Shown here: positions 1-63,384 of the stretch, one piece after another
How positions within the stretch are numbered: position 1 is the stretch's first letter
Layout of the letters: each line of letters starts with the position of its first letter
NCBI GenBank assembly: GCA_003971905.1
Contig: RSEE01000054.1
Location: 62,001 to 126,000, forward strand
Source: Moniliella sp. 'wahieum'
Taxonomy: Eukaryota
Length of the DNA: 64,000 nucleotides
Reading direction: 5' to 3'
Translations under genes and position numbers: made by a program
The notes under the pieces: model-generated
The model's database searches: none
What the model saw: the letters and a program-made list of their open reading frames with translations, nothing else
Told to the model about the DNA's origin: nothing

Positions 1-844
1 TTCCGCAACCTTTCAAGATTCTGCATCTACAGGCACGCTGGTCCGGCTCGTTCCATGAAGGTGCATATACACAACCTTGCCACGCTAGCCGATGCCCCAA
101 TATTTGAAAGGCCTCACCTCGTCTCTTGCTCCGCTCGCATCCGCCAATAATAGCGTTCACGTTTTTTGGTAGACCGTGAGTGGACCCTCCTCCTTGATGG
201 GAAAGAACCCCTGAACCGTGGGTTGGGCTCTAGTTCTGGGCCCGATGGATATCCATATTTTCAAGCCCTATCGTGTCCAACTTGCCGGCTAACGTGATGG
301 AGATAACCACAGGCGCCAAAACTTGAACCATCTCGCACGTATTAGCCATCTTGATCTGTGTATTCATGTGTACTGCCCCCTGCCGTCCAGAAACGGAGCC
401 TCTTTTCACCGTCTTTCTCCACCAACTTCAATATGCAGCCTGTTGTCGGCTTCTTTTGCCTGCGCTGAGACTCCGACAACCACATTCACCGCAAAAAAGA
501 CAGAAGGAGTTTACCTCTCCTCCGTATTATCGAGCGCTTCTGTTCTGCTCTGTTGGCGTTGACCAAGTTGACGGTTGCGGGGGAACCCAGTCAGTGAAAA
601 GCACCCGACTATTACATTCCCAGCATCCCACGCACTGCCCGTTTGGAGCCAGTGCCCTTTCTTTGGACACTCCTTTTTTTCTTGTGCTTTGCGAGGGTCG
701 TGATTATGAGCGAACTTGACGTTCTGATATACAAGCAATAAAACACTTCGGAGGAGACCAAGCTTGCCCTCACCGTGGAGGGGCCCGCGTTTGCTCCCAC
801 AGGGGCGCAACTTCTGAGTGTCAACATGCCACCCACGCCGTGCT

Positions 845-1283
845 TGAAGCTTCACTTGATGAGCTTGATGCATGATGAATGGTGGCGGATATATATGGGT
901 CTAGAATCCAGCTGTGGTATAGGGGACAAGTAGGCATGCTCGCAGTGGGTGCAACATGCACATCAACCAATCACATATGGGTGGTGGCAACCGGCGCTGC
1001 ACCAGTGCTGGAGACGCACTTCAACGTTCAACAACTGTACGCGCCACCCAGAAGAACAGAGAGGTGCAGCGCATGCCCTGCGGTCGAGTCGGACCGATCG
1101 GACTGTGGCGTTTGGGCCGATGTGGCAGCTGTGGCAGGCGAATGTGATGCATGATGCATCAGTGTAACAGGTGTCAACACTAGGATCAACGCGCTCAGCC
1201 AGCACACTCAGCCAGCACTCATGTTAACTAGTCACTAGTCACTAGTCACTAGCCAGTCACTTGTCACATGTCACTAGTCACTT
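845..1283. repeat. Cluster of T(C/G)A + 4-bp-palindrome heptamer repeats (AGCT, TGCA, ACGT, CTAG, CATG cores)
   Basis: TGA-AGCT-TCA 845-854; TGATGCATGATG 866-877 and 1145-1156; TCA-ACGT-TCA 1021-1030; (TCACTAG)n 1227-1252; TCA-CTTG-TCA-CATG-TCA-CTAG-TCA 1257-1280. Confidence 0.9.
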
Positions 1284-2184
1284 AGGGGAAGCATGGCTGT
1301 GAGAGCTGCTACCCCGCCGTAGCCGCAGTCTCTCGCCAATGCTGCTGCGCATCGCCAGCTATTGTCTTCTGTTCCCACTGCTTCCAGAGTGGTACAGTGT
1401 CAATTGCATGTCAATATTCAATCGATTCTTTGACTCTTTTTGTGCATATATACCATTGCTTAAGGCGCTTATAAGGCCTAATTACTAACTGTTGCTTTTA
1501 TTATGGCCTGCGCCTGCTTATACAACTCGTGTACGACAGGGACCTAGAGCTAGTAATAGCTGTTGCTCGAGCGATAGGAAATGGTGTGTTGGTTTGGGGA
1601 GCTATTGATGGTGGCTTGGGCTTTTCTGTGCCTGGCTTTCTGAGGCCGGGGGGAAATCGGACAAAAAGGAAGGCAGATTGTGTCACGCGCGCCACTGGAC
1701 AAGAAGTGCTCTCGTTGGGCCACTTGTGTTGTGGCGTAGAAAGGTTTGATGGGCTCTGGACCAATGGTGGCCAGCTTAATGTTGTTTGAGCCGCGTATCG
1801 CAGGCCGTGGCACCGCCGTGGCCGGGGGGGCGCACGTCCTGGTTTTAGATATACTTTCTGAAGCGTTCCTACAGTTCATGCATTTTTGGTCCATTAGTAA
1901 CCATGCCGCCAAAAGCTCACATTGAACTGAGAGATCGATTGGAGAGTTGCCGCCAGGGAGGGCCAAGAAAGTTTTGCACGCGTGATCTAGCCCGAAACGA
2001 ACCCGGTGGGGGGGCAAGGCAGGGCAAGGCGGTGTATAGGATAGAAATAGCGCAGTCTCTACTGCCTCTCCGCCAGTTATTTACCGCCTATGGTATGGTC
2101 CTGCGGCGCTTAATCGTCCCAGACAAGAGGCGTCCGTTCCCTGGTACATACATAGTCATCGATGCGATCATAGATATCGAGTGC

Positions 2185-2923
2185 TGATGCACTGATGCAT
2201 GATACTGAGTACGAGTTCCTGATTACATTGAGTAACTCAGTACTCAGTACTCAAAATCTCAGACTGAATACCGAAGGCTTGAAGCTAGCTTGAGATCTTG
2301 AGAAGAAGCTTGAAGCTAGCTAGCTTGAAGTTCTTCGACGGGTTGAACGTTGAGACGTTGAGGAACGATGCATGATCAATGATCCATGATGCATGATATT
2401 CGTGTAATGCATGATGCATGATACATGATGCATGATGTATGCATGATGCCGCATGCCAGTACATCACATGTCACATGTTACATGTGGGTGTCAGCGCAGC
2501 GCAATCCCGCATGTACCTGAATCACACGCGCCGCACAGGGGATATTCGATAGTCACTAGTCACTAGTCACTAGTCACAAATCAGTAATCGATTAATCGCT
2601 AGTGCCCTAGCGACTGCTGAAGCGCTGAAGCTTGAAGCGCTCAGCCATCACCGGTCACCCGTCACGTGTCACGCCGCCGCTGTCTTCTACCTAAGTTTCT
2701 CCCCTATATTCTGTCTTTTTAGTACGGGCCTCCTCTGAAGATGCCTGAGGCGGCCTGAGGCCTCAGGCCTCATCTGAGGCATGATGGACTTGATGGGCTT
2801 GATGTAATCCCCCCCTAAATTTGGACCGTCGTCATCGAGCGTCATCGCGTCATCTCTCTTTTTAGTAGCTTGATAACCCTACATTTTCCAAGTAAGAAAT
2901 GAGGCCTGACGCGTGACGCCTGA
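2185..2923. repeat. Dense heptamer-palindrome arrays (GTAC, AGCT, ACGT, TGCA, CATG, CTAG, CCGG, GGCC, CGCG cores)
   Basis: TCAGTACTCAGTACTCA from 2237; (TGATGCA)n 2385-2450; (TCACTAG)3 around 2553-2576; TCA-CCGG-TCA 2648-2657; TGA-GGCC-TGA-CGCG-TGA-CGCC-TGA 2900-2923. Confidence 0.9.
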
Positions 2924-3339
2924 AGGGCCGGAGGATCTAAGGCACAAGGCACAGGTCTGAGGGCGAGAGGCCTATAATAGACCTCCACACATTATTCTAA
3001 AAAGTTCAACCACGAGAACATCGACCTGGCATTTGCTGCATCGTAGCCAACTGTGGACGCCATCAGATGGCCTCTAAAAGAGCTGTTCACGAACACGGAG
3101 AGTGAACGAAGTATCCAGTGGAAGCGGTATCGGTTGTGGAGAGAGAAGACAGGAGGAGACGCGAACATAGGAGCACAAAAGGAAAGCGCAGGTGCGCCCC
3201 CCAAACACTGAGACCTACTGCCAGCGTCGCACAGAGCCTGCCTAGGTCAAGCTATCATCAACATATCACCACAGACTATTGCTTTGCTTCTCTTGAGGGT
3301 TTTCATGAATCTCCTTTTGGGTTCCTCTGGTCCCGCGGC

Positions 3340-3680
3340 ATCACATATGAGTCACATCGTGATATCGGTGTGTCAACGTTCAGTACGTTCAAAACGTTCA
3401 ACGTTCAACGTTCAACTCACCTTTTCTCTTCAAGCTTCAAGCTTCAAGAGCTTCAAGCGAGCTTCAGGCAAGCTTCAAGCTTCATCAATCATCGATCAAG
3501 CCTCAAGCTCTCAAGATTCAAGAGCTTCAAGGCGCAACCTCTGAGGACGAGTACTGGAGTTCGAACCTTCGGCTTGAAGAGCTTAAAGCTTGAAGCTTGA
3601 AGCTTGAAGCTTGAAGCTTGAAGAGCTTGACTAAGCTTCAGCCTAAAGAGCTTGAAGAGCTGGAACGTTAGCTTGAACCT
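3340..3680. repeat. (TCAACGT)n, (TCAAGCT)n and oppositely oriented (TGAAGCT)n arrays
   Basis: TTCAACGTTCAACGTTCA near 3397-3414; TCAAGCT units 3430-3530; perfect (TGAAGCT)4+TGA 3591-3621. Confidence 0.92.
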
Positions 3681-3935
3681 TATCGAGCGTCGCTTCTCCG
3701 TCTGTCGCTTCCGTCCAAGTGGCTGACTGTTTTGCAAGGAAGGGCTTCCAAGTGCGCCCCCTCCTCTGTTCGAGCCGTTGGGGCTAAGACTTAGCGCCCT
3801 TAGCGCTATGCTAAGGACAGGGACAGTGCGGGGCTTGAGGCGTGAGGCTGGTGGGGCGGGAGGGCGTGGCCTAGCGTGGAATTGGCGGCGAATTGGCGTG
3901 GCGCGTTGGAGCAGCAGGTTGGAACCTGTTGGAGT

Positions 3936-4540
3936 TGATGCATGATTAATGATTAATGATTAATGAAATTAATGATTCCTGATGCAATGCATGGTACATT
4001 GTGAAGCTTGGCTGAGGCGCTGGGGTTACCGGTTACCGGTGATTCGATCAATGATCTTTGACGTGTGACATAGTGACACGTGGCATGATGCCATGTGTCA
4101 TGCATGTCACCGGTGACCGAGAACCGAGAACGAGAACCGAGAACCGAGAACCGAGGACCGAACGGCAGGGGTCTGCGGCGCGCATTCCACAGTTCCGGCA
4201 CACCCTTCTCTTTGCACGCACGTACACGAGAAGAGACACATTAGTACTTTTACGTACCGGCTGTACCCGTGATTCTTGCACCGGCGACCGGTGACATGAG
4301 TGACAGAGCACCCACGCCTGTTGCCGGCATCATGCATCACACATACATCCAGTCTCAGATCTGATTTCCCACGTGTCACGCGCACGCCCCTATCATCTAC
4401 TGTCACATGTCACCTGTCCCATGTCCATGTCACATGTCACATGTCACATGCAATACACACCAGTACCCAGTACTGAACTCAGTTGAGTTACTCAGACTGT
4501 GTACTAAGTGTTGAATCTCAACACTCAGTTACTCAGTACG
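3936..4540. repeat. Heptamer-palindrome arrays (TGCA, TTAA, CCGG, GATC, CATG cores) plus a non-palindromic (GAGAACC)n heptamer
   Basis: TGA-TGCA-(TGA-TTAA)3-TGA-AATT 3936-3970; GTCACCGGTGAC near 4106-4117; about 6 GAGAACC units 4119-4159; TCA-GATC-TGA 4355-4364; (TCACATG)n 4403-4450. Confidence 0.9.
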
Positions 4541-5669
4541 CGAAGGGCTCTGTACTTGGTACACTTCTGCTTGGCATGACGCATCACCATCAGCATGCAA
4601 TCGGCATGTGCATGATAGTTGCCTCTGCGTCTAGAAAAGACAGCCATTTGCTTTTGGGCGGGGCAGGCCGATGCCTGAAAGTTGTGGCAAAGACCAACAT
4701 GTGCATGTTTGTGATTCCGGGCGCGATCATCGATCCATCGAAGACTGGCTGAAGACGAACAGAACGACAAGAGAGAGATGATGCATGATGCATGATGGTG
4801 CATGCGGAGTATCCCAACAGAGAAGAAGCAAGATACAAAGGAGGAATAATAGCCGTTTGTAAGGAGAGGCATGATCCACTTGAACGCAACTGCTATTGAC
4901 ATGATGTCTGTGTAGTTGCCATGACGTGCCAACCCAGCGAGAACCTGTAAGCTGTGACCCTGTAACATGATGGTGGCAAAACACACATTTCAGAGCAAAG
5001 CAATTTAAAGCGCGTCTCATCTCCAACAACGTCTCGTCTCGATTTCCTTGCTCATCGGGTATATCTCGCCAGTAATCATCATGCATCACGAGTCACTAGC
5101 TTCTTTTAACCTTCTTTCTATCCGGCGGCCCGCCTTCCTTCTTCCCGTCCGGCCTTGGAGCGCGCCTGCATGAGAGCCTATTAGGCATGGTACATACGGC
5201 AATTTTTGGCCACGGATCTTCGCCGAGACAAACTGTGGTGTCCTCTCTCTGAAATCCCATTCCGGCGTCCGGCCTCAATATTCAATGCACGCCAAGAATA
5301 GAGCCTCTGGTTCTGTAGGCGTGCAAGGCCACACCTTTGTATCATCAGCCCCAGCTGCCCCAGCATGTTCAGCCAGACTCAGCCTGTCTATTTATACAAT
5401 AAGCGCCCACACCCGCTCACATGTCACATCCCAAACTACCCCACAGCCACAAAGATACGTGCAACATGTGAGACTAGTGACTAGCGTCATCAACTTAGTG
5501 GCTAGTCCGGCTAGTGACTAGGACTCCGCTCCGCGGGCCTATTAGAAGAGACTTTATCGAATGCTCCCCCAGAGAAAGGGACCCACCAGAGCCACACTAG
5601 AGCCACCCTGGGCCCTACTATCACCACTGGCCGTTCCTGTTCCCAGCACGCAGTACACTCAGGCCTTAG

Positions 5670-6610
5670 GCTACTCACGTACTCAGTACTGAGACTCAGT
5701 ACGCACCGTTATTGAACGATGATCGATGAAGCTAGCGATCGATGAAGTTCACTAGAGTGAAGCTTGAAGTCACTAGTCACTAGTCACTAGTCACTAGGTC
5801 ATCGATAACCGATCATCGAACACTGGTACACACATCTGTAGGTGACCGGTGACTTCCTGCGACGAGCGACCGATCTAATCCATGGATGGAATGCAATCCG
5901 AAGTAGCACATCCTGTACCGTGTGTGAAATGTGACGCGTCACAGCCTGACGAGTGCCGAACAGGGCCGTGTCTTCCCTTCTCACATTCAGAATCTTCACA
6001 CCTGTCGTTCCAAGGGGGGGGAAAGGGGCTGCTAGGATGGCTGCAGTCTCTATCTGCTCTCAGGCATCAGGGAGGCCTCAGGCGCTCAGGCCGGTCAGGC
6101 CTCGGACTCTGTCCTGCCATTTCGCCTTTATAGACTCTTCCCCCCGTCGTTCGCGTTCACGCATCACGCCCATGATGACATGTCACATGTCACATGTCAC
6201 GAGGATATCAAGTGATTGGGACAGCAAGTGTCCGGCCGCCCCTCGGTCCAGAAATCCCCAAAACACACTCCCGAAGAGCTGGGCAGGCAAGTGTCGTGAC
6301 CAAGAGTTAATTCGTTTAGCATTGAATATTGATATCTGAGATTGATCGATCGTCTTGGTGGCTGCTGGCGGAGGTTGGGGTGGGGGCCTGTAAGACTCTG
6401 GGTGTTCACATGTCACACAGTGGGACTGAGTAGTAACTGAATACTGAGTCTTTGTACTGCGAGGTCCACACCAGAGGCGCCTGATGCTCTTAGGCCCACC
6501 AAACAGTGGCGGTGCGGGCCAGCAGCGCTTGCATAATGCTCTGTAAACACGTAACGAGAGTGTGGCGCCCCCTTTGAGGCTGAGCGCGCTGTGAGCGCTG
6601 TGAGCGTTGG
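5670..6610. repeat. Heptamer-palindrome arrays (GTAC, TCGA, AGCT, CTAG, GGCC, CATG, ATAT, GCGC cores)
   Basis: TCAGTACTGA near 5684; TGATCGATGA 5720; TGAAGCTTGAAG then (TCACTAG)4 5758-5797; TGACATG(TCACATG)2TCA 6176-6199; TGAATATTGA near 6323. Confidence 0.88.
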
Positions 6611-7410
6611 ACACCGCTAAAGTGCACCGAGCCCAGAGAAGCACCCTCGGTCCTGAGTCTGAGAATACTGAGCCCTGGCCTGGGTAGTACACCGTAACAG
6701 CATCCCATCCCATACTCTGCCTCTTCGATCGCCACTTCTCAGATCTCAGGGTCTGTGTCGGTTGGTGTGGGCCATGCTGGGCCATGCTAGGCCACGCGTC
6801 GCACATGCATCGGCCGCCTATTGTCACCATGCCACATGTCATGCCACCGTTCAAGACAGGCACTTCCCCAGCCGCAAGAGCATGGGCGCCTTGCCCATGT
6901 CACCGGTCACCACACGCCCCGCCCAGCGCAGCGCTGGCTATATGCCGATCGACTGGTTCGCTGCCCTAGACGCACAGTCCGTGCTTCCACCCACAGCCTC
7001 CACCCTCCATCGACGCTGGCGCCCGCTTCCCTCTGTCCGTCCTCGGTGGCCAGCTTCTCCGCCGTCTCTCCCTTAAGAGCGTAAACACTCGAGGCCAAGT
7101 CGGGCCCGGAAGAGCAACCAGGGCCTCATTGGGAGCAGGGTCCAACGGCCAACCAACATTGAGAGTCTCTCGCCGTCGGAGTTTTCAAAGGGCCTACGCG
7201 CTCGTGGTTTGCGAAGCCGCCGCCAAGTTTTCCGCCCTCTGCTCTCTTGAACACCGATTTGGGGCACTTTCTTTGTTTCCGGCCTCTTCCGCGCCAGTTG
7301 AGCACGTCAACCAACTGGTGAGGCCGCCCCTTCTTCACCTCGCCCATCTCCTCCTCCTTCTCGTTTCCTCAGTCGCCTCGCACGTAACGCGGCGATCCAC
7401 CAACGCCTCC

Positions 7411-32298: not shown

Positions 32299-35200
32299 TT
32301 AGGCAAACAACAATGACAAATAATCCTGCTCGCGGGCTCGGTTCGCTTGTCTTGTCTCTCGTTCTCGTTTTCGTTCTCGTTTTCGTGCTCGTTCGCCGAG
32401 GGAGGACAGGCGAGACGAAAGAGGGAGGGACAAGGAGCTTGGGCACTCAGGGCGTCCATTCCTGCTTGAGTCTCGAAGGGACAAAGCGGAGCGAGGCAAA
32501 CCGCCAACGATCGAGGCTAGTACGTTGCTCCGCGCCGGCGGTGTAAATGGCCGGCACGCCGCGGGGCCTTGTTCCGGCGGAGGCGGCGGGTGCGGAGGCA
32601 AGTGGTGCGACGAGGGCAGGGGGCGGACGAGGCGAACGCGCACGTTCTTTGCCCACCGCGGTTTGAGCGGCGCAGTAATCTTGTTGTTCCGGATCATCTC
32701 CAGCTCCAACGAGAGCATGTAGAGGTGCTTGCCATTGGCCAACAGACGCGGGCGCATCGTACGCGCGCCCGCACCTGCGCCCGCACCCGCACCCGTACGC
32801 GCACCCGTACGCACACTGGCTCCGCCCGACCCAGCACCCCCCGCAGCAGGTTCTCGCTCTACTTCCGTCTTGGAGTTGCGCCGCGTCGGAGGCGGCGAGG
32901 CCGTGCCCGAGCGAAGCGAACGTGACCGCCGCACCCGTCTCGGCGCCTCGTCGGCGGCGGGGCCGTCGACGCTGGCTCAACCATACTCGTCGGACGGCGG
33001 CGCATGCCCTTGGATCGTCGGCGACCCGTCTCGACCGCCGCAACGTCGGATCGTCGACGGCGCGGGAAAAGGTCACAAGTAGATTCCAGGCGGCCCTCTC
33101 GCTCCTCTCCTTCCTGCTTCTCCTTCCCCTCCCCCTCCCCTTCCTCGCCCTGCTGGGTGTGGGGCAGGGTGAGGACTGGCGGCGGGTAGGAGGACAGTGT
33201 CGATCGCGCTGTGTAAGACGGCGCGAAGGTCGTTGGTGCCCAAGCGCAGAAGAAGAAGCGGACAGATCCGAGGCCAGGCTCACCAGCCCACGCGACCGAC
33301 TGTGGGTCGAACGTACCCGGTCGGCCGAAGGGGTGCGAGAGCGCGAGCGGCCACGTACCGGCTCGTCCTCCAGCGCAGTGCTACGACTGGACCGCACCTC
33401 CACGCCCACGCCCACGCCCACGCCCACGCCCACCCACGCTCCCACTCGCTTCCTCCTCGTCGGGATCGGGAGGAGAGAGAACAAGGTTTCTTCCAGCGCC
33501 AGCGCCAACGCTTCCGGGTCCAGCACATGAGTTGGATCGGCCTCCTCGGCTGGCGGCGCCGGGACCGGGCGATGGAGTCGCTTGTCTTCCGCCTCCTCCT
33601 CGGGGACCTCGCCCGAATGCAGCCGGTACGTCTCGAGGACACCATAGAGGAGAGCTCCACGTCCGGGTCTACCGGTTCCCCTAACCCCGCCACATAGGCC
33701 GACGCTGACGCATCCGCTTCCCAGGGCGTCATCACGCCCGCCCCTTGGAACTGCCAGCCGGAGCGGCCTGAGCCGCTTCGCCTGGGCCGGTCCTGACGCT
33801 CCCAGTCCCATTCCAACTCCATGGCGGGGAGGCCGAGCGTGCGACGCCTGAGGCGTGCGCATCCTTTTCCGCCACAACGGGCGCGGCGGGCAAGCCGATC
33901 GGGCAGGCGGAGTAAAATAATTGGGCAAGCGGGAAAATTGGCGCAGCGAAGCGGCCAACAGCCCGCCTCGTCGTCGCGGCGGTCGATCGACGGGGACGAC
34001 CGAGGGTGCAGAGGTAACCAATACACTGTCCGTTCCGTCGCTGGCCTCTGGCAGAGCAGGTGGGAGCGGCACGTCCCCGTCCAATCCTGATTCCGATCCC
34101 GATCCCGATCCCGATCCCGATCCCAGCCTCTCCTCGGGGATCCGTGGGCTGAGAGATGGCGTCACCGTGTCGGCATCGGAACTGGTCGAGGTGCGTCGGC
34201 TTCCTTGCAGGGTGGCGTGGAAGTTGGAAAGACGGGCGGCAAACCATTCATCGGGGGGCGTGGAGGGGCTGGTGGCTCGCGAGGCGTGAGCGCCAAAGGG
34301 ACGGTAGGGTTGGTTAAACCCATGTTGCAACGGGTCGTCCGACGCCTCAATCCGAATTCGCATTGGTGCCCGTGCCGTACCGAGCTCAGGGCGAGGGGGA
34401 GAAACGGGATCGGTGGGAGTGGGCGTGGGCGTGGTTTGGTCAAGCGAATCAGAGTCGAGCAGCTCATCCCAAGACAGTGTCACGTCCTCTGGGACCATAT
34501 CGGGTGGGGAGCTCGGGCAGGAGCGTCGGCCCGGGATGGCCGGCTGGATGGGCCCAAGAGAACTGCCAAGGAAGGGGAGCGAGAGGCACGGGCTTGGGCT
34601 GAGAGCGTGCCCTGGGAGGCAAGACGGGGATGGCGCGCTCAGTCGGGCAGGGGCGAGGGAGCTCGTCGGCGGTGCTGATCAGCCTCAAGCGCAGCCAGGG
34701 CATGCACGCGTGCCCCTAGTCCCGAGCTGGAAGCATCAGAGCGCTGTACCAAGCCACGAACGTGTTGCGACAGCGTCGACCCTTGCCTGTTCTCCTCGTC
34801 CAAGGAGGGTTGCAACGCTTGGACCCTTGCCAGACGAGAGTGAGGGGAAGACGGATGCACATTCTCCGTCATAGCATTCAACGTAGCACTCGCAACAGCG
34901 AGGGATACGGCCGCCCTAGGTGCGGCGGTAGCGGATAGCCGCATCCGCGCCGGAGGCGAGAGAGAAAGAGACTGTGCCGGAGAGGAACGGGCGGAGCGGC
35001 AGGAAGAGGTCGACAGGGGACTGGTACTTGTTTGGGGCAATGAAGTGTCGCCTGGCCTGTCTCGCCCTTGGCTAGGGCTTGTGCTCATCGTCTCGATGGA
35101 GCTGAGAGAGGAGCCAGACGACGACAAGGAGGCGGGCAACCCTCCAGTAGAAGGCAGGGGTGGGGGGACGGCGGGCGAGCAGGCGTGCAGGGCCGGTGGT

Positions 35201-36170: not shown

Positions 36171-36660
36171 GCGCGGCGGGCACCGTGGGGGGGGGAGGCG
36201 GAGGGCGGGGGGGAACGCCAAGGACGACAGGCGAATGGCCGCCTGTCGTTTGCCAGCCAGGGCCACGATGCGTGATGTGTCATGCACCAGCGCAACCATG
36301 TGCGCCCACCCCCCAACCGCATGCCTCGGCGGCCGACTCGCATTGAGCACGCCGCCTCCAAGTTCACGATTCCGGGCGCTCACCGCTCAGCCTGCTGCCA
36401 TGTGATCCGCTGCGAGCGGGTCACTACCCGCCGCCCAGCACAGCCCCCCTGCCGTTGATGGCGCCTGTCTTGCCTCCCAGCGTGACAGCGCCCGTCACGT
36501 GCCAGCCCGCCCGGCCTGTCTTCCGTACGCGCCTCTTTCCCACCGCCGGCCACTTTTGGCTGGCACACTGCAAAAGCTTAGCGTGTACATCGTCCACCCC
36601 ATGGCCTCGATATTCGATAATCGATAACCCCCCGATAATCCACCTCGGCCCCCGCCCCAT

Positions 36661-36877
36661 TGTAAGACCGGAGGAACCCAAGGGATTGGGTGAAGAACCT
36701 CTGGAAATGTAGAGCAATGCAATCGCGATGGTGGTGGTTAAGGTCTAAGCCTTGTGCCACACCTAGAGACAGGGGTTCAGACAAGCCTGAGTATACACGT
36801 GGAGGCTTCGGAGGACAAATCAGGGGTGAAGGGTGATGAGGCGCCTTGGCCTAAGTACGGGACCACGGGTCCCAACA
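36661..36877 (-). repeat. 3' LTR of the copia element
   Basis: Base-for-base identical to 42002-42218 by eye; minus strand reads TGTTGGG...CTTACA. Confidence 0.97.
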
Positions 36878-36942
36878 CCCCCCCGGGCCAAGGGAACGAA
36901 AGAAGCCCGTTGGCCATCAACAAAAGAAAAGTAGAAAGGGGA

Positions 36943-39900
36943 TCAGCGCGAAGAAAGAGAAGCCAAATCGAAATTGTTACGCGCAGAAATGATCTTGGGA
37001 AGAGAAAGAGGTTTGGTGAACCAGTCAGGGAGATGGTGTGCACCTGGAGTGTAGTGGACTTTAATTTCGCCTCGGTGGATGCGTTCCCGCACCTCGTGGT
37101 ACGAGACGTCAATCTCCCGTATTTTGCCTAGGCTGCCGAGCTTTTCGGCCAACGCTTTGGCAGCGGTGTTGTCAACAAAGAGCTCAATCGGGTGATTAGC
37201 CTTGCAGACACCAAGTTCAAACAGTATGTTGCGAATGAATAGAGCATCTCGAAGGCCATCTCCCATGGCTAGGTATTCAGATGCTGCTGTGTTGCTCACA
37301 CCTTGATTTTGGGACTTGGAGCCCCAGGATACAGGCACACCGAAAACAAAAACAACATGGCCCGAAACGGAGTGAGAGTTGCTCTTGTCTGATGCAAAGG
37401 AGGCATCGGTGTGCAGCTCGAGTAGAGGGCGAGATCGGTTGGGTGTGAGGCACAAAGAGTAGTCAGACGTACCGGCGAAGAAACGTAATAGGTCCTCCGC
37501 TGCGCGTCGGTGGGCGGCGGACGGGTCGTCCATAAACCGCGCTAAAAAGGTAGCCGCAAAGAGGGCATCAGGCCGGGACATACGAGCCGCCCACAAGCTG
37601 GATCCGACAATAGAACGGTAGGCACGGTGCTCGTCTCGAGTGGCACGCTTTTCGTGTTCGGGTCGCTTGGGAGGCGGAAGTTGGTGGCCGATTGGAAGGT
37701 AGCGGGGCCGGTGAGGTGATATGTCATGCGCGGCAAGCGTCTCAGCGATGAATTTGGGTTGGCTGATGTACAGTCGTCCATCGATACGGTCGTATTGGCA
37801 GCCGAGATGGAAACGTAGGGGGCCGTTGGACTTAATTTGGATGCTGCGCCTTAATTCCACTAAGAATTCATCATACGCTTCTTGGGACCGACACGCGACC
37901 AAAAAGTCGTCAGTGTGGACGGCGATTAGGATCAGGCCAAGAGGTTCGGTGCGACGTATGAACAGGCAAGGCTCTGATTTTAGGCTAGTGAAGTGGAGTC
38001 GGTCGCAAAGGAAAGTGCGGAGCCAATCTCCAAAGTTGGCCCCGCTCTGGTGCAGGCCATAGAGACTTTTCTTGAGTCTCCAGCAATGACCGGGCGCTTC
38101 TGGGAAGAAGGGGGGTGGTCGAACATAGACGAGCTCGTTGATATCGGCATAGAGGTAGGCAGCTTCCACATCGGCAGAAAATAAGTGGAGGCCATCAGCT
38201 TCGGCCAACGCAATTAGCGTGTTGACGGCAGCAGTACGAACGGCAGGAGCAAAAGATTTCGCCCATGTGCCAGGAACTTGCCGGTGCCCTCCCACAACGT
38301 AGCGGGCACGGTACTTGAGGAAGTTAGCATCCGCATCCGTCTTAGTACCTATGACCCACATGCCGGGAAGGGGTTTGATCCCTGGGGGGATGGGTACAAC
38401 TTCCTTCACGTCACGCTCGTCAAAACGCCGAAGCTCGAGGCGCATTGCCTCGAGTACGCCATCAAAGGCAGGGTGACCCACCAACTTCTTGATGTTCTTG
38501 GGGGCCACCGGGACCCCATCGGTGGTCAGTATGACCTCGGTGTCACTTGCCGCGGATTCGATTGCGAGTGCAATGGGGGGCGAGCTTGGCTCCGAAGCAG
38601 GTAGCATGGATGTGTCCGGCGCTGGTCCGAAAATACTCACCAAAGCCTGCATTCCTAGGGCGGAGAGGGCGGCCGGGTTGCCAAAGATGCTAGGGGCCTT
38701 GTTGACGAGCAGGGAAAAGGTGCCATCGCGCAAATTGTCGTTGGCTGGAATGGACAGGTCGAGGGGTGGAGCGTTGATACGCGCTTGGCGAACGGGATTG
38801 CGACGCACGAGTGCGGGGACGGCTGTATCGGTCAGGGGCACGGTCACGGGGGCGAGCGTGTCGGTGGGGAGAGAGGGGAGGGGATAGGGCGGGAGAGGAA
38901 GGGGAAGTGGAAGAGGGAGGGGAAAGCAGGACTTGGTGGCCAGTGTCAACGGCATCTTCTGTGATAGTTTCATTTTCTTCGGCTTGCTTTGCCTGGCGTT
39001 GTGCCATGCCTGCGGGGTCAGATGCAACAGGTTGGGGGGATACATGTGGGGGGTTGGAGTTGGTGGGAGTGGGGCCAGGCTCTGAATTCTCATTTTCGTT
39101 GGCTTGAGCCGGGCGATGTGCCTCTGTTTTTCGTTCTTTTAATTTTCTTTTTCCATGGGGGGCATTGTCTTTCTTACCATTAGTATCGCGGGTCAGTTCA
39201 TCTATCGCAAAACGCACACGCCGGGGTGGGGAGCTGTCTGACTTCCCACCAGCACCCATTTCTCCGCCCCCCCGCACCTCTCCGCCACCAGCAGGGACAA
39301 GGGGGTCCAGATGAAAGTGCGTGGGATATTCGGTGGTGTACGGGACATGCGTCCAGGTGGACGGCTTTTTCCAACGGAATCCAACTTGGCCGTCGTCCTG
39401 GTGGATGGCAAAGAGCCACCCCTTCGAACCGCGGCCGTGCCCGTAACCCACCAACATTGCTGGGACGGCCCGCGGACCAAGTTTGCCGCCCTCGCGTTGG
39501 TTGGGCAATAGGTGCAGGTAGGCAAGAGTGCCAAAACCGCGCATGCGAAGGGAGGGTTTGAAGCCATGGTACCGGACAAATCGGCTGTCCCCACCCAGTG
39601 CTTTCGGCGGCGACTGGTTGTGTGCATATGTGGCCGCCAACAAGCTGTGTTCCCACCACTCGTCGGGAGTCAATCTGTTGGCGATTACCATGAGTCGAGC
39701 GCGATCCGTAATCGATCTTATGGCGCGTTCGGCGACCCCATTGGACGCACTTTCGCCAGGATTGGTGCGCTCGCTCACTACTCCCAGCTCGCAGTAAAAC
39801 TCGTCCATTGCGGTGGTGAGTTCAGGCGCATTGTCAGAGCGGACCGTCTGAAGGGGGCGGTCGGGATGTTGGCGATGCTCGCGCCGGATGAAGGCTTGAA

Positions 39901-41895
39901 GTTCGGCTGTGGCATCACCCTTGGACACCAGGGGTAGCGTCCAGGTATACCGCGTAAAGTCGTCGACAATGATAAGGGCGTAAGTATGACCCCGCCGCCT
40001 TGGCGGGATATGTCAAGGACGTCGAGGTGGAGGAGAGAGAAAGGGCGAATGGTTCGGATTGGGCGTCCAGTCGTGGCGTGGGGTGGGGCAGTGGCTCTGC
40101 TTAATGCGCATGGTGCACAGTGCCACGAGGACCGGACTAAAGCGATGTCGCCACTGTTGACCCGTTCGAATGCTGGGTCATCCGACGTGAGGGATGAAAG
40201 TTGATCTAGAGGTGCATGATTCCATCGGATGTGGGCGTTTTTCACCTTGACCAGGGTTGCATCAAGGTTGAGTAGCGAAGTGGCGCTGTTGGCTGTGGCT
40301 GTCGTATTGGGCGCCAGAGTAAGGGAATAGCTTGAGTCGGCGGCGAGACGAAAAGGTTCGCCGTGTCGTCCGAGATAGAGACCATGGCCACCTGGAGGGA
40401 TCCAGCTGCCAATGCCTGCGATAGATAGATGGTAAGCGCTGAGCAGGTTGGTCGGGAAGGTGGGGCAGTACAAGCTGCCGGGTAGGTGGATGCGGATAGG
40501 GGCTCCGTTCTGGGTTTGAATGTACATAGAGATGGTGCCAATGCCTTCAGTGTATGCGATCTGTCCGTTTGCCACTGCTATGGGCTCGCGGTGTGGACGA
40601 AGATTGATAAACGCACTTCGTTCATTGAATACGGATGGTCTCGCACCTGAATCGTGTTGCGCAGGGAGGTTGGCTGGCTTGGGTGGTGTAGTGGCTGCCA
40701 TAGGGGTTACTGCATGGGCAGATGAGGTGGTCTGGGCTGTCGTAGCCGGCCGGCTAAAGTGGCCGCCACGTTGGCCACCACGGTGACTTCCTCTGTACCC
40801 GCTGCCACCTCGGCCTCGTCCGCGGCCTGACACCGTACTGCTTGTTTGGCTGTGCGACGTGGCTTCCGAAGGGGCCGTACTGGAGGGAGCTGGGCTTGAA
40901 CTGGAGGTACTGCCGTAGTTGGAGCCTTTGAGTTCGCTCACTGCTCGGCGCAATTCGGCGTAGCTGCTGTTACGATGGAGGTGCAACCACCCCTGATCAG
41001 TAACGCCTTTCCGTAGCATCTGTGCTAGACCAATCTCGTCCAGCTTGGACTTGGACGTCATCTCGTACTGGGTTACCGCCACAGTGAACTCATTCAGGTA
41101 TTGGCGGCCCGACTTGGTGCCCATTTTGAGAGTGAGAACCTTTATGAGGATATCACAGATCTCAGTGTCTGAAACGGTGCCGTACAAATCACGCAGAGCA
41201 TGATAGTATGCAGACCCTAGAGCCGGCGTGCCATCGCCGGTGATCTGCTGGACGACGTCGGAGTCTATCCACGGGAGTAGAATGTTGGCCAAGTGAGCGT
41301 CCAGTTCTGCGTTATACCCGTCCAGGGCCTTGCCCTGTTCCAGATGCTCACGCGCTCCAGGGATAATCTGGATACGAGGGAGGAAGATCCGGGTCCATAA
41401 CCAAAACGAGCTGTTGTTGTGGAAACGCTCGTGGTACGGCACGTTGCTGCGAGTGGCACTACGGAGGAGCTTGTCGGGAGTCAAAGCCCACGGGTTGTCG
41501 TCGACGGCCGGAGTTGACGATAAGGCACCTTCGTTCTTGCTAGCATTGGGTGGATTCTCACATGATAACATGACAATGGCTTCTGTGGTCGTCTTTTCGC
41601 TGTACCCAAGCTTGATACCAGTGTCCTGTAGCTGTTTGAGGGTGATGTGTTCGGGAAACAATTTGAACATGTTGCGAATGCGGTCGGCGAGGGTGGCGAC
41701 GTCGTTCGCGGTGTTGTCGGGGCCCACGGGGGTGGGTTGAGGTGTAGGGGTAGATTCACGCGATGGTGTCAGCGGCGGGGAGGCGTGGTCAACTCCGACG
41801 GGAGTGGTGCTCTCTTCTGCTCCGGCAGTTGGTGAAGTAGGGGTTGAGGAGTTGAACCAAGACTCCTGAGTCTGAGAGCTCATGATGCTTGCCAT
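36943..41895 (-). CDS. Gag-Pol polyprotein (two frame changes, near 39990 and near 38880)
   Basis: Protease HDSGA...IAVANG; HHCC (HIRWNH...CAPC); integrase HLD, RSDNAPE, NGVAER, SKGW; RT KYRARYVVGG, DVEAAYL, LKKSLYGLHQSG, HTDD; RNase H HTDASFA, FVDN, DWFTKPL. Confidence 0.93.
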
Positions 41896-42001
41896 TAGCT
41901 TACGCAGTTCGAGCAAGCGCTTGTGGATAGGGCCGGCAGCGGAGGACCGAAGAGTGTAAGAGTGGAAGGCTCAGGGCTGAGCGTCAAGAGGATTGTAACT
42001 C

Positions 42002-42218
42002 TGTAAGACCGGAGGAACCCAAGGGATTGGGTGAAGAACCTCTGGAAATGTAGAGCAATGCAATCGCGATGGTGGTGGTTAAGGTCTAAGCCTTGTGCCA
42101 CACCTAGAGACAGGGGTTCAGACAAGCCTGAGTATACACGTGGAGGCTTCGGAGGACAAATCAGGGGTGAAGGGTGATGAGGCGCCTTGGCCTAAGTACG
42201 GGACCACGGGTCCCAACA
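42002..42218 (-). repeat. 5' LTR of the copia element
   Basis: Identical to 36661-36877; lies upstream of gag on the minus strand. Confidence 0.97.
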
Positions 42219-42762
42219 CCCATCACCTCCGTATCACCCGCCGCAGCCGACGGAGCCACCGCCGACGGTTGCCGCAAGCTTGTTTCCTCGCATCTTAGAC
42301 TTGCTCGCCGGTACACTTTCCCAAACCCCATTCACCCCTTGCCCAGCGCCCATTGTCTCTGCCCCCCCTTCACCACCAAAGTCTATTCCCCCCGTGCCAA
42401 TCTCCATTCCCCGCATCGACACTCCTATGTCTCCTCGGCGCACCTGAGCCCCCCCCCCCCCCCGTAAACCTTTCGTGCCCAAACGCACCGGAACGCTGAG
42501 CCTGCTCGCAGCCCCTGTGTTGGGTGTTCGTTCGTGTTGGTGTTTATTACTTGCGCTGCCCCCACCCCTCATTCTGAGATCGATCTCGCTGTCGAACAAA
42601 GTACTCCTGTTCCATAATGTTATGCGGACCCCTCTTTCCGAGTTTGGAGTTTGCCTTCCCCTGTCTTTTCTTTTACGCGTCCCTTTGGTGATGCAGCGGG
42701 GGTCCAGGCCCATCATCCCTGTCTCGCGTCGCTATCGACCCACCGATCCCCCGCCTTCAACC

Positions 42763-43871: not shown

Positions 43872-44022
43872 GGTGGAGAAAGAAACGGCTTGGAGAAGAG
43901 AAGGCGACAAGAGGGGGAACGGAAGAAGGGGAAAAACGTTCGCCACAGAAGACAGAAACGCCTGAGTGTTTTATATAACCGCGGGGGGGGGAAGAGGGGC
44001 GGAGGGGGTGACGGGAAGAACC

Positions 44023-44885
44023 ATGTGACATGTCACATCATGCATCATCCGACAGGCGTACCTCTCTCATCCTCGCCTGAGGCCTGAGGCCTTTTGTGGC
44101 TCCGAAGAACAAAAGGGCGTGGGGTAACCGATAAGGCAAGGGTAACTGCGTAGAGTGAAACGCATGGCGCTCATGCGCTCATGGCGCGCGACGGCAACCA
44201 AGCGTGTGACATGGGGATCTGGCGCGGGGCCAACATGTAGGCCGACATTCGCCCCTCTCGGATCCTCGATCCCGCTCCACCGAAGCAAAACAGGGCGCAG
44301 GCACGGCCGCCCACCCAAAGATGGCCACGAGCGCGACTAGGTGGGAGGGGTGGAGCAGCGACGTTGACGTCACCAAGCGTCGCGCTCCCCGCTGTGTGGC
44401 AGCGCGGGATGGGGCCGGGCAGGCGTGTGGCGCGCGCAGAACATTAGTAACCCTGAGCGCCTGAGCCGCCATGCCATGCCGACACTCCGACGGAAGCGCC
44501 ATCAGAGCCCCCATGCAAGCGCGCTGGACTGCCCTGCAGTGCCGCCGTGTGGAGCGGCGCCAGTGTCCCAGCTGAAACAACGTGGCGGCGCTTCCCAGCG
44601 GCGCCGAGGCGGCCAGGAAAATAGGGCCGAGAGGGCGGCGGCGGATCCCCGATCATCGATCACTAGTCACTCGACCACGACCAAGATGGGAAGCACATAG
44701 CGCGGGTTGTGTTGCAAAGGACCGGCCCCTCTGCAGGGCGCGGGACGCGTGAGTGTGCCATGCGCATGCCACACGTCCTGTCAAACTCCCATGGCCGAGT
44801 TTCCACCGAGACGTGCGGTGCACCACACGAGGAGCGCGCCGAGCAAGCGGGGCTGCGGCCATGATGCATGATGCATGATGCCTGA
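44023..44885. repeat. Heptamer-palindrome motifs between the small gene and PKC1
   Basis: 16-bp palindrome ATGTGACATGTCACAT 44023-44038; TGAGGCCTGAGGCC near 44078; TCATCGATCACTAGTCA near 44653; (TGATGCA)n 44862-44880. Confidence 0.8.
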
Positions 44886-44965
44886 CGCACATGAGGATGC
44901 ATTACAGCACACACACCGGGAGAGGCAGCCGTTCAGACGACCAAAACGTATGCCAACCAGACGCC

Positions 44966-45219
44966 AGAAGAGGGAGGGGGGAGTGTTGAGCCATCGGGTG
45001 GCTTGTGCTTTGGCCAATGTCTCTTCCGTTCCTCCTCAGGCCTGGGAGTTCCGTTGTTTTCTCTCTGCTGTTTTTTCCTTGTTCCGCAGCTTAGCCCCTG
45101 GTGGCGACTCGCTCTGCTTGATGTTCCTCTGTAGGCGTTGCTGGTTGGCTTAGGCCCCACCACCACCACCAGTGCGATTGCATCACCCTCGAGGACCATC
45201 AGGACTCCAGGTCTCATCA
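44966..45219 (+). mobile_element. Orphan 3' LTR (44984-45219) with adjacent polypurine tract
   Basis: 18 purines AGAAGAGGGAGGGGGGAG (44966-44983) directly before TGTTGAG; ends CTCATCA; collinear with solo LTR 54984-55208. Confidence 0.8.
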
Positions 45220-45882
45220 TGCATCAGGGAGGGAATGGGAGGAGGCAGTGCAGAGATAAGCGGGCGCCTCGCCTGGAGCGGGGCAGAAGGTGATGCGTGC
45301 GTGCTGCTGATGGTTAGTTGCTCCAGGCACTTGGGTTGCTGCCCTGCCGACCGCCGGAGTTGGAGGGCGCTACTGGCATAAGTCGACCGCACACGGGCGC
45401 CAGACGAGAGAGCGGGGGTGCGAGGGGAGGCAGCATCGGGTTGGCCGACGCAGCCCCCGGCGGAGGGGCGTGGTGTGGCGCAAGCGGGCGGAGGCTGGGG
45501 GACACGCACGGGTGCATATGAGGGGGCTGGCGAGGCCAGGGCGGGAGAGGATCATCGATCATGTGTCGGGTGCCACCCACCAACACGGGCGGGCATGGCG
45601 CGCGTGTACCCAGCACGCGGCTGCCGCTTGCAGGCTGGCCTAGGCTCTAGGCTGGCGCCGCTGACGGTGACCCGCAGCGCGGCGGAGGACGGAGGACAGA
45701 GGGCGAAGACGGCAGCACTCGGCAGCATGACGCAGCATGATGCCAGGACGCGTGACGCAGCACTACGCAGCACGCCGACTGGTGCTGGGTGCTCGCTTGC
45801 GCTCGCTTGTCCCCCCGCACACTTCCCGCCCTGGCCAGTCCGCACCCCACACTCCCCAGCACGCCCGCCTCGCCACCACCCG

Positions 45883-45954
45883 CATCTGTCCCATCTGCCC
45901 CATCTGCCCCATCTGCCCCATCTGCCCCATCTGCCCCATCTGCCCCATCTGCCC
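45883..45954 (+). repeat. (CATCTGCCC)8 tandem repeat just upstream of the PKC1 ATG
   Basis: Seven perfect units and one variant 9-bp unit read directly. Confidence 0.95.
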
Positions 45955-45994
45955 CCCCCCCCCTATACCCACACCTCGCTCGCCCCCTCCCGAC

Positions 45995-54983: not shown

Positions 54984-55208
54984 TGTTCAGCCACCCGGTG
55001 GTTCGTGTGCTTTGGTCAACTACGTCCCTGCAATTCCTCAGGCCTCAGGCCTAGGAGTTCCGTTGATTTCTCTCCCGTGTTTTCCTTGTTCCGTGGCCCC
55101 TGGTGGCGATTCGCTGGTTGTTCCTCTGTAGTCGTTGCTGGTTGGCTTAGACCACCACCAGTGCGATTGCATCGCCCTCGAAGACAATCAGGACTCCGGG
55201 TCTCATCA
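54984..55208 (+). mobile_element. Solo LTR (225 bp) with 5-bp TSD
   Basis: TG...CA ends; ATGCC at 54979-54983 and 55209-55213; homologous to 44984-45219. Confidence 0.88.
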
Positions 55209-60444: not shown

Positions 60445-61184
60445 GAGTATTCCCGGCCAACTAGATGCCCACCTACATTATATGTTCAAACTCGATTTAA
60501 GCAACACTGCCGTAGTAATGATATCTTGCAAAGCCCAAGTAGCACATATCATCCGTCAAAGTTCTCTGCCTAGTAAATGTGATCATTGTTGTCCCACGCT
60601 GTAGCGCACTCGTTGGCTGAACCAGCGAGCAGGTCCTCGAGGTCTTCGAGGGATCCAACAGCTGGGGAAAAGGGTATGCCACCAATCAGTCCTTCTCTCT
60701 AGTAGGGACGAAAAAAAACACCAGATCATGTCAATCATCATCAATCACAGTGAGCAGCATGAGCAAGAGTGGGGTGTAGGCCTGCTTTTCGACCAGATAG
60801 TATGTGTATATCAAGCCGATGAGTCTCGTACCGTGGCAGATCATCTCGAACATCCATCATTCCCATGTTAGTCCAACGGCGTTCCATGACTTCAAGCTTA
60901 CGGTTACGCGTTAACAAGCAAAACACACGCAGGATGAACGGCTCCGTTTAGACCCAGCGTTTCTTGTCCCAGCCTTAACCTCGTCAATGATATGGTTGCA
61001 GTATAGACATGTCGATGAGCTACAGAGAGGCTAGAGAATAGCCCTGCCCTCCAGGAAGGATATTGGAAGGAATACTACACCTGAGGACAAAAGCTTGGGC
61101 TAGACTAGTTGGGCGCGGCCCGCCACACTTCCTGATGATTGAGATCGCAGAAGAGCACACAAGACAAGCAGGACGAGGGTACTC

Positions 61185-61752
61185 TCAACGTTGGGTGTTG
61201 AGTGTTGAGTGTTGAGCCTCAACGTTGAGCGTTGAGCTTCGCTTCGCTTTGAATACCACTGGTGGCGTATATAGTGGTGCCTCATATATCTCAGTTTTCA
61301 GTGTACTCAGATGGAGTGCTATAGACTGAACTCAATAATCGGAGGCCACCATTTAGTACTTGGCATCTGTCGAGTACGTTGAGTACGTAGAGTCCAGATC
61401 TCAGATCTAAGACATTCATACATTCACGCGTCACGCGTCACGTCAGATCATCGATCATCTCGATCATCGCCCATCGTGCATCGATCCTTCCTGTGTGATC
61501 GATGTGATACAGGATTCAGTATGTGTGACGGATGAGGTCGATGAGGCCCTGAAGCTGCCGTGAAGATCTGAGATCCTGAGATCCCCGAGATCCTGAGATA
61601 TCTCGTCTCTCAGAATCTCTGGCCTCTCATGCTCAGGTGCTCAGGCTAGGCCTTGTGGTCCTAGTACTACGTTCGAATGCACTTTTCTGGCCGTCTCCAG
61701 GGCATAATAGTATGTCATTGATGTCACTTGTCACATGTCACACGTCATATAT
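61185..61752. repeat. Heptamer-palindrome arrays upstream of the Ran1-like kinase
   Basis: TCAACGTTGA; (TGAGTGT)n; TCA-CGCG-TCA-CGCG-TCA 61424-61440; TCATCGATCA; TCA-CTTG-TCA-CATG-TCA-CACG-TCA-TATA-T 61724-61752. Confidence 0.88.
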
Positions 61753-63384
61753 ATCGGCAACAAACTAAGAAAAAGCAGCCCAGACCTTCTCCCCCGCTTG
61801 TCAGTCTCAATGCCTCAAACTTGCCCCCATCACGACATCATCTGCATCATCGACATCCCTCACACGCTCTTTCTTGATATAAGTTGATCTTGGATCAATG
61901 ATTTTATTATTGGTATTGAGAGCATATCGAGCGCATTGTTTATGTGTGGAATATGCGTTTTTAAGAATCTCTGCCGATGCACTTGAGTCGCATACCTCTC
62001 CCCGCCTGAACGATCATCAGTTAAACATGGACCTCTAGCGGGACTGTCACTGTTACCGAAGGATCGCTACTCTCAGCTGTGCTGTTACATGTTCATGTTA
62101 TTTGGACTAAAATCAGTGGCCATTTTTCGTGTATTTGTATGGAGTGCGCGATCCTTGGTGTCACGGGCGGGCGCCGCCAGGGGGCCCGCCCTGGGGTTTT
62201 TGGGGTACAATCCCTTAGGCGACGGTAGGTCGACTCCGGTAGTTTCGGGCTTAGGCTGGTTGGTGTGCCCGAGCGGACCTAGGGACGAGGAGAGGCCTTT
62301 GGTGGGGCGGCTGCACGTGTGGCAAGGCTGCGTCTGCACCGGCTTGGGCCGTAGTAACGTGTCTGAAGCCTCCGGGACTTAGGGACGGGAGGAGGCAGCG
62401 GCGGACAAACACTGCCTTAACTGGGACTGGGAATCGCCGTGACCGAAGGAGGGCTCGCGCGATTGGACTGACGAAGGGCTGGAGGACGAGGTCGGAGGAG
62501 ATGTCGGACGCTAACAAGAGGAGCTGCCTGTACTGGATCAATTGGCTGGAAACGGGCAAGAGTCGGACAGGATAGGCGGGAAAGGGACGAAATGGAGGGT
62601 GGAGGAAAAAATCCCCCACCAACCGGGGGTACAGGCTTAATCAAAAAAGGGGAAAACAGACACAAAGGGGGTGTAGAAAGAAAGGCACGTCAAAAGAGGG
62701 GTTGATCGCCGCAGGCGCGATCGAGAAAGGAAAAAAGTGGTGACGGGCGACGGACGTCGCAAAGATACTGAATACAGTTGGTGGTCTCGTTTTGACCACC
62801 GACTTGGACTTGGGCGGGAGGCGACTGCTGTCGCGCGTACGCATGGCAACTCGGACCACCGTACTTAATTTAGCCAACCATCATCACACTTGGTTGGCCT
62901 GCGGTGCACGCTCTATGGGCATGTGCGGAGCAGGCGGGCCTTAGCTTGGGTCGGACCATCTCGTGTCCGCCGCAGCCCGTGACACTCCCAGACGATGATC
63001 GATGAACGCCACAGTCTGCGTTGAAGGCTGTTCAAAACTCATTATGTATGATGGACCTTGCCTTACTACTATCACCGCCGCCACCACCACCACAGCCACC
63101 ACCATCACAGCCACCACCATCACCTCGACCTTTGCGGATCCACTCCGGGTCCAACAACCCCGCACTCCGCAGCCCATTCTGGATTTATTATGTTCATCCC
63201 ACAATACCACCGTCTCCCTGTGTGTTCTCTCTACACTCACTCTCAGAGAGCAAGGATACCATATTCCTTCCTCTTTCGTACCCCTCTATCTCTGCTTCAC
63301 TGCTCGTCTGCCAATTCATCTCCATAATGTGAGTTCCACACCTCGGTCGCATAACCCGCGATGTTCTTGGTAGGGAAACTGACT

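Follow-up and report, generated by a model that had tools for sequence, protein, structure and literature searches.

The 64,000-nt window analyzed here (the whole stretch, positions 62,001 to 126,000 of contig RSEE01000054.1 from Moniliella sp. 'wahieum', nuclear DNA of a basidiomycete fungus) carries numerous short tandem heptamers that follow a single rule, in which T[CG]A is joined to a 4-bp palindrome of almost any sequence. With S standing for C or G, W for A or T, and N for any base, one event adds 7 nt at a TSA site: the TNA and two flanking bases are copied directly, and those two bases are copied once more in inverted orientation, as array edges, run lengths, and two-sided triples demonstrate. 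On balance, we favor the view that the pattern records a process that writes DNA and not one that reads it and that the heptamers are hairpin-type excision scars, here stereotyped, genome-wide, and repeat building.

All counts refer to the window, with 80 metagenome loci (588 kb) as a control and with Markov-4 simulations as the background (30 runs for palindromic cores and N4 totals and 25 runs for a second estimate of N4 totals). The motif T[CG]A-N4-T[CG]A occurs 179 times, against 58±7 (30 runs) or 56.5±6.5 (25 runs) in simulated sequence, and every other spacing from N0 to N12 gives 47-101 occurrences. The core is palindromic in 95 of the 179, where simulation gives 5.3±2.4 and a maximum of 12. 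When the same trinucleotide is required on both sides, TCA (49 palindromic of 77) and TGA (35 of 68) alone stand out among the 64 possible flanks, which together yield 170 palindromic cores of 1967; the runner-up is ATG (9/50), and TAA, at 4/10, hints that the centre base need not be C or G. These results bear out the first-pass annotation of this DNA, made from the letters alone, which had proposed the N4 spacing, the palindromic core, and the preference for TCA and TGA over other flanking trinucleotides, and its arrays lie where it placed them (for example, TGA-AGCT-TCA at 845-854). It had counted 13 of the 16 possible cores as fully flanked; our count with both flanks in register is 14, with AATT and TATA absent and GCGC seen once.

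The same rule emerges when periodicity is the starting point. Exact period-7 runs of at least 14 nt consist of T[CG]A plus a 4-nt palindrome in 29 of 51 cases, a form that fits 224 of the 16384 possible heptamers (1.4%). With T-N-A permitted and runs of at least 12 nt included, 75 of 181 period-7 runs (41%) obey the rule, and the centre base is C in 39, G in 30, A in 4, and T in 2. The earlier description of TCA/TGA as invariant is therefore correct as a strong preference for S (69/75) but too strict, as W is also present (6/75). Among odd-palindromic unit centres, TNA accounts for 75 runs, ANT for 3, CNG for 2, and GNC for 3. Adjacent units share the same S in 84 of 95 cases and have complementary S in 11. 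A secondary excess is found at period 9 (TSA-N6-TSA, 97 against 58.5±9.5 simulated; same S, 68 against 31), which is only partly explained by the four +9 events described below.

The content of a single event can be read from several features. Rule-obeying run lengths have their mode at 12-13 nt (20 and 23 runs), with 5 runs at 14 nt, and 11 of the 20 runs of exactly 12 nt start or stop precisely at TNA, where 5.7 would be expected with uniform phase (phases were counted by hand from the run listing). The mode and the boundaries together fit five direct plus two inverted bases and not a plain 7 + 7 duplication. Single duplications with five matched bases and 2 nt of filler number 79; in 24 of them, where about 10 would be expected, the filler reverse-complements the two outer bases. 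No comparable excess is seen in the window when the filler is 1 or 3 nt long. At array edges, a non-palindromic heptamer yzTNAcd adjoins a copy that has one flank, reverse-complemented, as its outer arm; there are 22 left-type and 25 right-type edges, against 0.15 + 0.15 in Markov-4 simulations and never more than 4 for any other central triplet. Two sites, at 1262 and 44651, were struck from both sides (neither has an assigned strand):

1262..1282, two-sided triple TGTCACA, TGTCACT, AGTCACT, with the original, non-palindromic heptamer between its left-flank and right-flank palindromised copies.
44651..44671, two-sided triple GATCATC, GATCACT, AGTCACT, with the original heptamer flanked by both mirror products.

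The junction is thus the reverse complement of the adjacent flank end at the 22 + 25 edges, in both triples, and in the sequence CATCA-TG-CATCA discussed below for a long terminal repeat (LTR), and a direct repeat of 5 nt (7 nt in the +9 class) is kept at every junction, as a target duplication is kept at an empty site after excision.

The product spectrum has a sharp peak at +7, with a +8 tail of 9 loci, a +9 tail of 4 cases, and almost nothing at +5 or +6. The +9 variants, likewise without an assigned strand, came from one search, which found four:

855..870, CTTGATG as a 7-nt direct duplication with the 2-nt inverted filler AG between the copies.
6590-6605, 61531-61546, and 61836-61851, three other +9 variants.

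As simulations give 0.05 members of this class, in which a 2-nt inverted filler separates two direct copies of 7 nt, the four observed indicate that the direct duplication can cover all 7 bases. Plain 7-bp duplications at non-palindromic NNTNANN are rare, with 3 real loci among 7 matches. Period-7 arrays free of palindromes also exist, namely (ACCGAGA) x6.7 at 4116-4161 and (GTTGAGT)/(CGTTGAG) x7 at 61189-61237, from which it follows that units can be amplified without a palindrome too. The latter array has a TGA centre with non-palindromic arms.

The units are a feature of non-coding DNA and are unevenly distributed within it. The following regions (no strand assigned) illustrate this:

845..6910, dense gene-free tract of units, with single events and arrays of 2-6 units on many different cores.
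3586..3623, the longest exact array, (AAGCTTG) x5.4, equal to TGA + AGCT (38 nt, period 7, 97-100% matches).
44022..45758, rule-obeying intergenic cluster upstream of the protein kinase C gene (from the run listing and Pfam gene placement).
60903..63005, second gene-free tract, containing degenerate arrays as well as runs that obey the rule (1.6 palindromic matches per kb in 60301-64000).

Open reading frames (ORFs) with a Pfam match, used as a proxy for coding DNA, cover 20,834 of 64,000 bases (33% of the window) and contain 1 of the 95 palindromic matches. Positions 1-7000 hold 68 of the 95 (72%), a density of 9.7 per kb, compared with 0.13 per kb in the gene-dense stretch 7001-36660, none in the Copia element described below, and 0.9-1.6 per kb in intergenic DNA elsewhere. 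The enrichment in 1-7000 could stem from neutral DNA of great age, from local hopping out of a donor close by, or from an unusual chromatin state. This gene-free part of about 7 kb has a GC content of 50-52%, against 55-66% elsewhere. Within the tract 845..6910, Pfam found no domain in any ORF of at least 110 aa, and tRNA and Rfam searches gave no match.

The units are also restricted to this lineage. The control loci surround protein kinase C homologues (49-74% protein identity) and presumably derive from other fungi. They have palindromic cores in 54 of 702 cases (7.7%; chance, 6.25%) and rule-obeying runs in 11 of 577, as opposed to 75 of 181 in the window. Both comparisons had been suggested by the first-pass annotation, between intergenic and coding DNA and between genomes, and both come out clearly: with 1/95 matches in Pfam-matched ORFs and 11/577 runs in the control loci, the pattern is neither an artefact nor general to fungi. 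Within the window, old units decay by point mutation, because cores with one mismatched pair are relatively enriched (0, 1, and 2 mismatched pairs in 95, 52, and 32 cores, against 11, 67, and 101 by chance).

Paralogous LTR copies allow individual events to be viewed against an older background, and a Copia retrotransposon provides the recent counterpart:

44984..45226, plus strand, solo LTR A (TG...CA), with the 5-bp target duplication GGGAG at 44979-44983 and 45227-45231.
54984..55208, plus strand, solo LTR B (TG...CA), with the 5-bp target duplication ATGCC at 54979-54983 and 55209-55213.
36661..42221, minus strand, complete-looking Copia retrotransposon (RVT_2, rve, Pol_BBD), with 220-nt LTRs that are 100% identical and the 5-bp duplication CCCAT.

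Solo LTRs A and B are 79% identical and differ by two rule-type indels. TCAGGCC is present twice in B (55036-55052) and once in A, and at the 3' end A carries 7 extra nucleotides (45220-45226), reading CATCA-TG-CATCA and then GG, where B has one CATCA and then GG; the rule-obeying run at this end of A spans 45215-45226. Plain tandem duplication at the LTR end would yield GG or CT and not TG, which excludes it for the second indel. Because the shorter end, in copy B, retains the better terminal inverted repeat (TIR) with the LTR start, the difference may be taken as an insertion in A, a direction that is suggested by two copies and not proven. The two solo LTRs represent a second, older LTR family with no internal region within the window. 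The Copia element would have inserted very recently, because its LTRs are 100% identical. It is free of rule-type events, which makes it an internal control for DNA that is recent or coding; its two LTRs, compared with each other for new events, are identical and hence uninformative. A rule-type unit, TCGATAA x2, lies directly outside the element at 36614-36627.

When a palindrome may have any sequence and takes it from the flank, a hairpin or fold-back intermediate is indicated. As 14 of the 16 palindromic cores are represented, with copying from the flank at 47 array edges, a protein cannot have selected them, and a copying process is needed. The first-pass annotation had offered two explanations, a DNA-binding factor that reads TSA-N4-TSA and a fold-back or template-switch synthesis that writes the repeats. 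The former is not supported, given the any-sequence palindromes, the flank copying at those edges, and a 7-bp spacing that is off helical phase. The latter comes close to what we propose and is right in part, but break repair after excision is simpler than dedicated synthesis. The palindromes behave like P nucleotides from hairpin-capped ends, and the remainder of each unit is a direct target duplication, so that the simplest source would be the repair of a break left by an excised transposon. We consider it somewhat better than an even chance that the heptamers are scars of a cut-and-paste element that duplicates a symmetric 7-bp target and whose excision leaves hairpins that are opened 2 nt from the tip, with one overhang kept. 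The +7 product, its TSA anchor, its flank-templated palindrome, and its confinement to non-coding DNA and to this lineage are observed; what we infer from them is the hairpins, an intermediate stage with a 7-bp target duplication, and, most of all, the transposon.

In the proposed mechanism, the element would insert into NN-T-(C/G >> A/T)-A-NN and duplicate the 7-bp target, and its exit would turn both flanks into covalently closed hairpins. The host would then open both hairpins, each by a nick placed 2 nt from the tip, so that either end would carry a 4-nt self-complementary 3' overhang (cd-d'c' for the left end, z'y'-yz for the right), and end joining would retain one overhang and drop the other, leaving an empty site that is 7 nt longer. 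The predicted products are yzTNA-z'y'yz-TNAcd or its mirror yzTNAcd-d'c'-TNAcd, that is, TNA + 4-nt palindrome + TNA. The new palindromic heptamer would be a fully symmetric target whose overhangs are now cohesive, and repeated visits, probably together with ordinary slippage, could build arrays that later decay by point mutation. The minor products are accommodated by small departures from this scheme: the opening of one hairpin at its tip for the +9 class, a shift of 1 nt for the nine +8 loci, and an occasional opening far from the tip for the 11 of 95 adjacent units with complementary S.

Several results weigh against this scheme. Pfam detects no DDE transposase domain in the 228 ORFs of at least 110 aa in the window, and of the 777 TIR pairs found there (arms of at least 12 nt), 18 have a flanking direct repeat of at least 3 nt and none of these is of the T-N-A type; an element with TIRs and the same duplication length and target was thus not found within the 64 kb. 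A candidate end motif, CTCACTG, is not enriched in the window (6 matches against 10.6 expected). The product expected when both overhangs are kept (+11) was found 0 times in the window, and that expected when both are lost (+3, TSATSA) is not enriched (82 against 90.5±10.3 simulated). The direction of both LTR indels depends on just two copies. We know of no superfamily that pairs a 7-bp duplication with a TNA centre, and about 10 scars per kb over 7 kb is, to our knowledge, far above any known excision-footprint density and would need very many insertion-excision cycles. Finally, the uniformity of the product goes far beyond that seen among 128 Candida revertants, which carried 28 types of footprint (PMC5873905).

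It is because scar density and product uniformity exceed those of known footprints that a resident nuclease must be taken seriously as a rival, although we hold it to be an unlikely one. Here the scar chemistry would operate without a mobile element: a host-encoded or domesticated nuclease would make 7-nt-staggered breaks at NN-TSA-NN in accessible non-coding DNA, and repair would duplicate the target and add the 2-nt inverted filler via hairpin ends or turn-around synthesis at the template end. Such an enzyme would suit a window without a transposon, and the very high density and near-deterministic product fit it better than rare cycles of insertion and excision. The event rate per TSA site, roughly estimated from 2 LTR events in about 460 nt at 21% divergence, is on the order of the per-base substitution rate, which also agrees with it. 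However, the known DDE enzymes that form hairpins leave, after a single cut, a hairpin end and a blunt end at one position, with no duplication, and the direct duplication most simply requires an earlier insertion. The strong clustering of scars in 1-7000 (densities as given above) resembles local hopping, and we know of no candidate enzyme. A wider possibility, which we raise tentatively, is that the lineage possesses a resident activity that writes DNA, be it a transposase or nuclease that is domesticated or highly unusual, or else a transposon superfamily, as yet undescribed, whose 7-bp target is centred on TSA. It is conceivable, if doubtful, that accessible TSA sites acquire palindromised 7-nt units from such an activity at a rate close to that of substitution per base. 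The activity would then rank among the main sources of new tandem repeats and of turnover in promoters and spacers and would leave a sequence-specific insertional mutation signature undescribed in any eukaryote.

More conventional explanations fare worse. Ordinary microsatellites could arise if slippage favored hairpin-foldable heptamers and quasi-palindrome correction perfected them, and arrays reach 6 units; moreover, arrays that break the rule or are one mutation off it have been amplified as well (CCAGTAC x2, CCAACGT x2.7, and ACCGAGA x6.7), for which reason slippage probably contributes to array growth. As a full account it is quite improbable, as the first-pass annotation had recognized in calling plain slippage insufficient: foldability needs no T..A, yet TNA centres 75 runs against 3 for ANT, 2 for CNG, and 3 for GNC. 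Slippage cannot make the first inverted dinucleotide beside a non-palindromic original (47 edges), it predicts whole-unit boundaries when the mode is 12-13 nt and not 14, and other fungi do not show the pattern (11/577 runs). Putative sites under selection for a dimeric regulatory or chromatin protein, with TSA half-sites 7 bp apart, would fit an invariant T-S-A and units that are intergenic and in part promoter proximal. We regard this as very improbable, since the cores are palindromic yet of any sequence and flank templated, the densest tract is a 6-kb gene-free region, the arrays decay freely by point mutation, and units present in one LTR paralogue are missing from the other; T.A alone is constant, which is not the conserved recognized sequence that selection on a binding-site array would maintain. 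Least probable of all is an artefact of assembly, amplification, or sequencing, such as fold-back chimeras, which would produce neither the avoidance of coding DNA (1/95 in 33% of the window), nor a graded mutational decay, nor differences between old paralogous LTRs inside intact target duplications.

Other geometries for the event itself were considered and set aside. A 5-bp duplication with P nucleotides on one side would be asymmetric about a symmetric TNA, and the other P side is rare (9 matches, 6 of them ambiguous); the symmetric 7-bp scheme is preferred to it because it gives the same product and accounts for the +9 class. A symmetric one-step scheme, which places two different odd palindromes side by side, is represented by 4 cases only. 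A hairpin with a TNA loop, 1-nt or 3-nt staggered cuts, and breaks of the Top1, Top2, or Spo11 type were worked through by hand, and none yields two direct TNA copies with the same centre. Scars of an LTR integrase do not fit, as the filler is flank templated and not a constant TG/CA.

If the excision-scar reading is correct, a visible share of the non-coding DNA owes its form to one enzyme and its single stereotyped repair product. Microsatellites would then have a new route of birth, in which transposon or nuclease scars, and not slippage, recur at a palindromic target that renews itself. The arrays would also form a natural genome-wide record of how hairpins are opened and joined in a fungus (a nick 2 nt from the tip, with one overhang kept) and would point to an element or enzyme with a 7-bp TSA-centred target still to be found. 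On a practical level, the arrays are likely to be hypervariable markers, and they may mislead motif finders that scan promoters.

The remainder of the window provides the gene setting. Pfam searches of six-frame ORFs identify intron-split housekeeping genes for NMD3, tubulin, fibrillarin, Rpn3, protein kinase C, a DEAD helicase, and an MIT-AAA ATPase. A kinase ORF has its best named relative in Malassezia (72% identity); mushroom-forming fungi come next (about 67%), and other matches reach 80%. A 743-aa ORF (32450-34678, minus strand) and a 433-aa ORF (35088-36386) have no Pfam match and lie in a stretch of 66% GC packed with hexamer and dodecamer repeats, among them (CCACGC)5.7 at 33400-33433, (ATCCCG)6.8 at 34084-34124, and (GCATGGGCATGA)7.7 at 35882-35973; this stretch may be a gene for a low-complexity protein or non-coding repeats. 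Upstream of the protein kinase C gene, a near-perfect 9-nt array, (CATCTGCCC) x8 at 45883-45955, is unrelated to the heptamer rule.

Comparison with known systems gives both shared features and differences. No description of the pattern was found in the full-text literature, a search whose coverage leaves out most subscription journals. A preprint on Replitrons has no bearing on it. In the parts of the sources available, the Cryptococcus T1 paper (PMC9942834) gives no T1 target motif, and PMC12810828 lists target duplications of 2, 3, 4-8, 5, and 6 bp with no mention of "footprint". Like heptanucleotide microsatellites, the units form short non-coding tandem arrays in which growth by slippage is probable; unlike them, a single rule covers 75 of 181 period-7 runs, against 11 of 577 in other fungi. 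Slippage microsatellites have no rule for the unit sequence and change by whole units, and we do not class the heptamers with them, given that 41% of runs obey the rule and the mode is 12-13 nt.

Among transposons, Tc1/mariner footprints consist of TA, 2-3 bases of the transposon end, and TA. They share with the heptamers a stereotyped, short, quasi-palindromic scar with an ambiguous centre base, but their filler is constant and comes from the transposon ends, while here it is flank derived and takes 14 of 16 forms. PIF/Harbinger and IS5-family elements make 3-bp TNA/TWA target duplications, and Tn10/IS10 has the symmetric hot spot NGCTNAGCN; in all of these, as here, the target is symmetric and centred on T-N-A with a free middle base, and they differ in that their duplications are 3 bp or 9 bp. 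For PIF/Harbinger specifically, membership is contradicted by a duplicated stretch of 5-7 nt, by the TSATSA count (82 against 90.5±10.3), and by the preference for S at the centre (69 against 6 for W).

hAT elements duplicate an 8-bp target with the consensus nTnnnnAn, in which T stands at position 2 and A at position 7. The period of 7, a T and an A that are one base apart, and the hexamer A-NNNN-T in place of T-NNNN-A set the heptamers outside this superfamily, whose footprints centre on the complement of the element-adjacent base, in contrast to the T-N-A centre and period 7 found here. Excision of Ac/Ds provides a precedent for the proposed scheme. In Candida and budding yeast, it leaves palindromic P-nucleotide footprints via flank hairpins, the position of hairpin opening being host dependent, and two footprints predominated in Candida (35 and 18 of 128 clones; PMC5873905). 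The footprints of Ac/Ds and other hAT elements in plants, S. cerevisiae, and Candida albicans resemble the heptamers in a kept target duplication, flank-templated P nucleotides, and a few predominant products. The heptamers differ from Ac/Ds footprints in a near-uniform product, in densities of up to 10 scars per kb, in the building of tandem arrays, and in that no element is seen in the window.

The geometry proposed for the opening of the hairpins has its counterpart in V(D)J recombination, where Artemis opens the RAG hairpins of coding joints at about 2 nt from the tip and so produces 4-nt 3' overhangs. V(D)J recombination serves the immune genes of vertebrates, uses fixed signal sequences, and makes no target duplication, and we claim no membership in it. 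What its P nucleotides share with the geometry suggested here is the relation between cut and product, in which a 2-nt offset from the hairpin tip gives a 4-nt palindrome at the junction.

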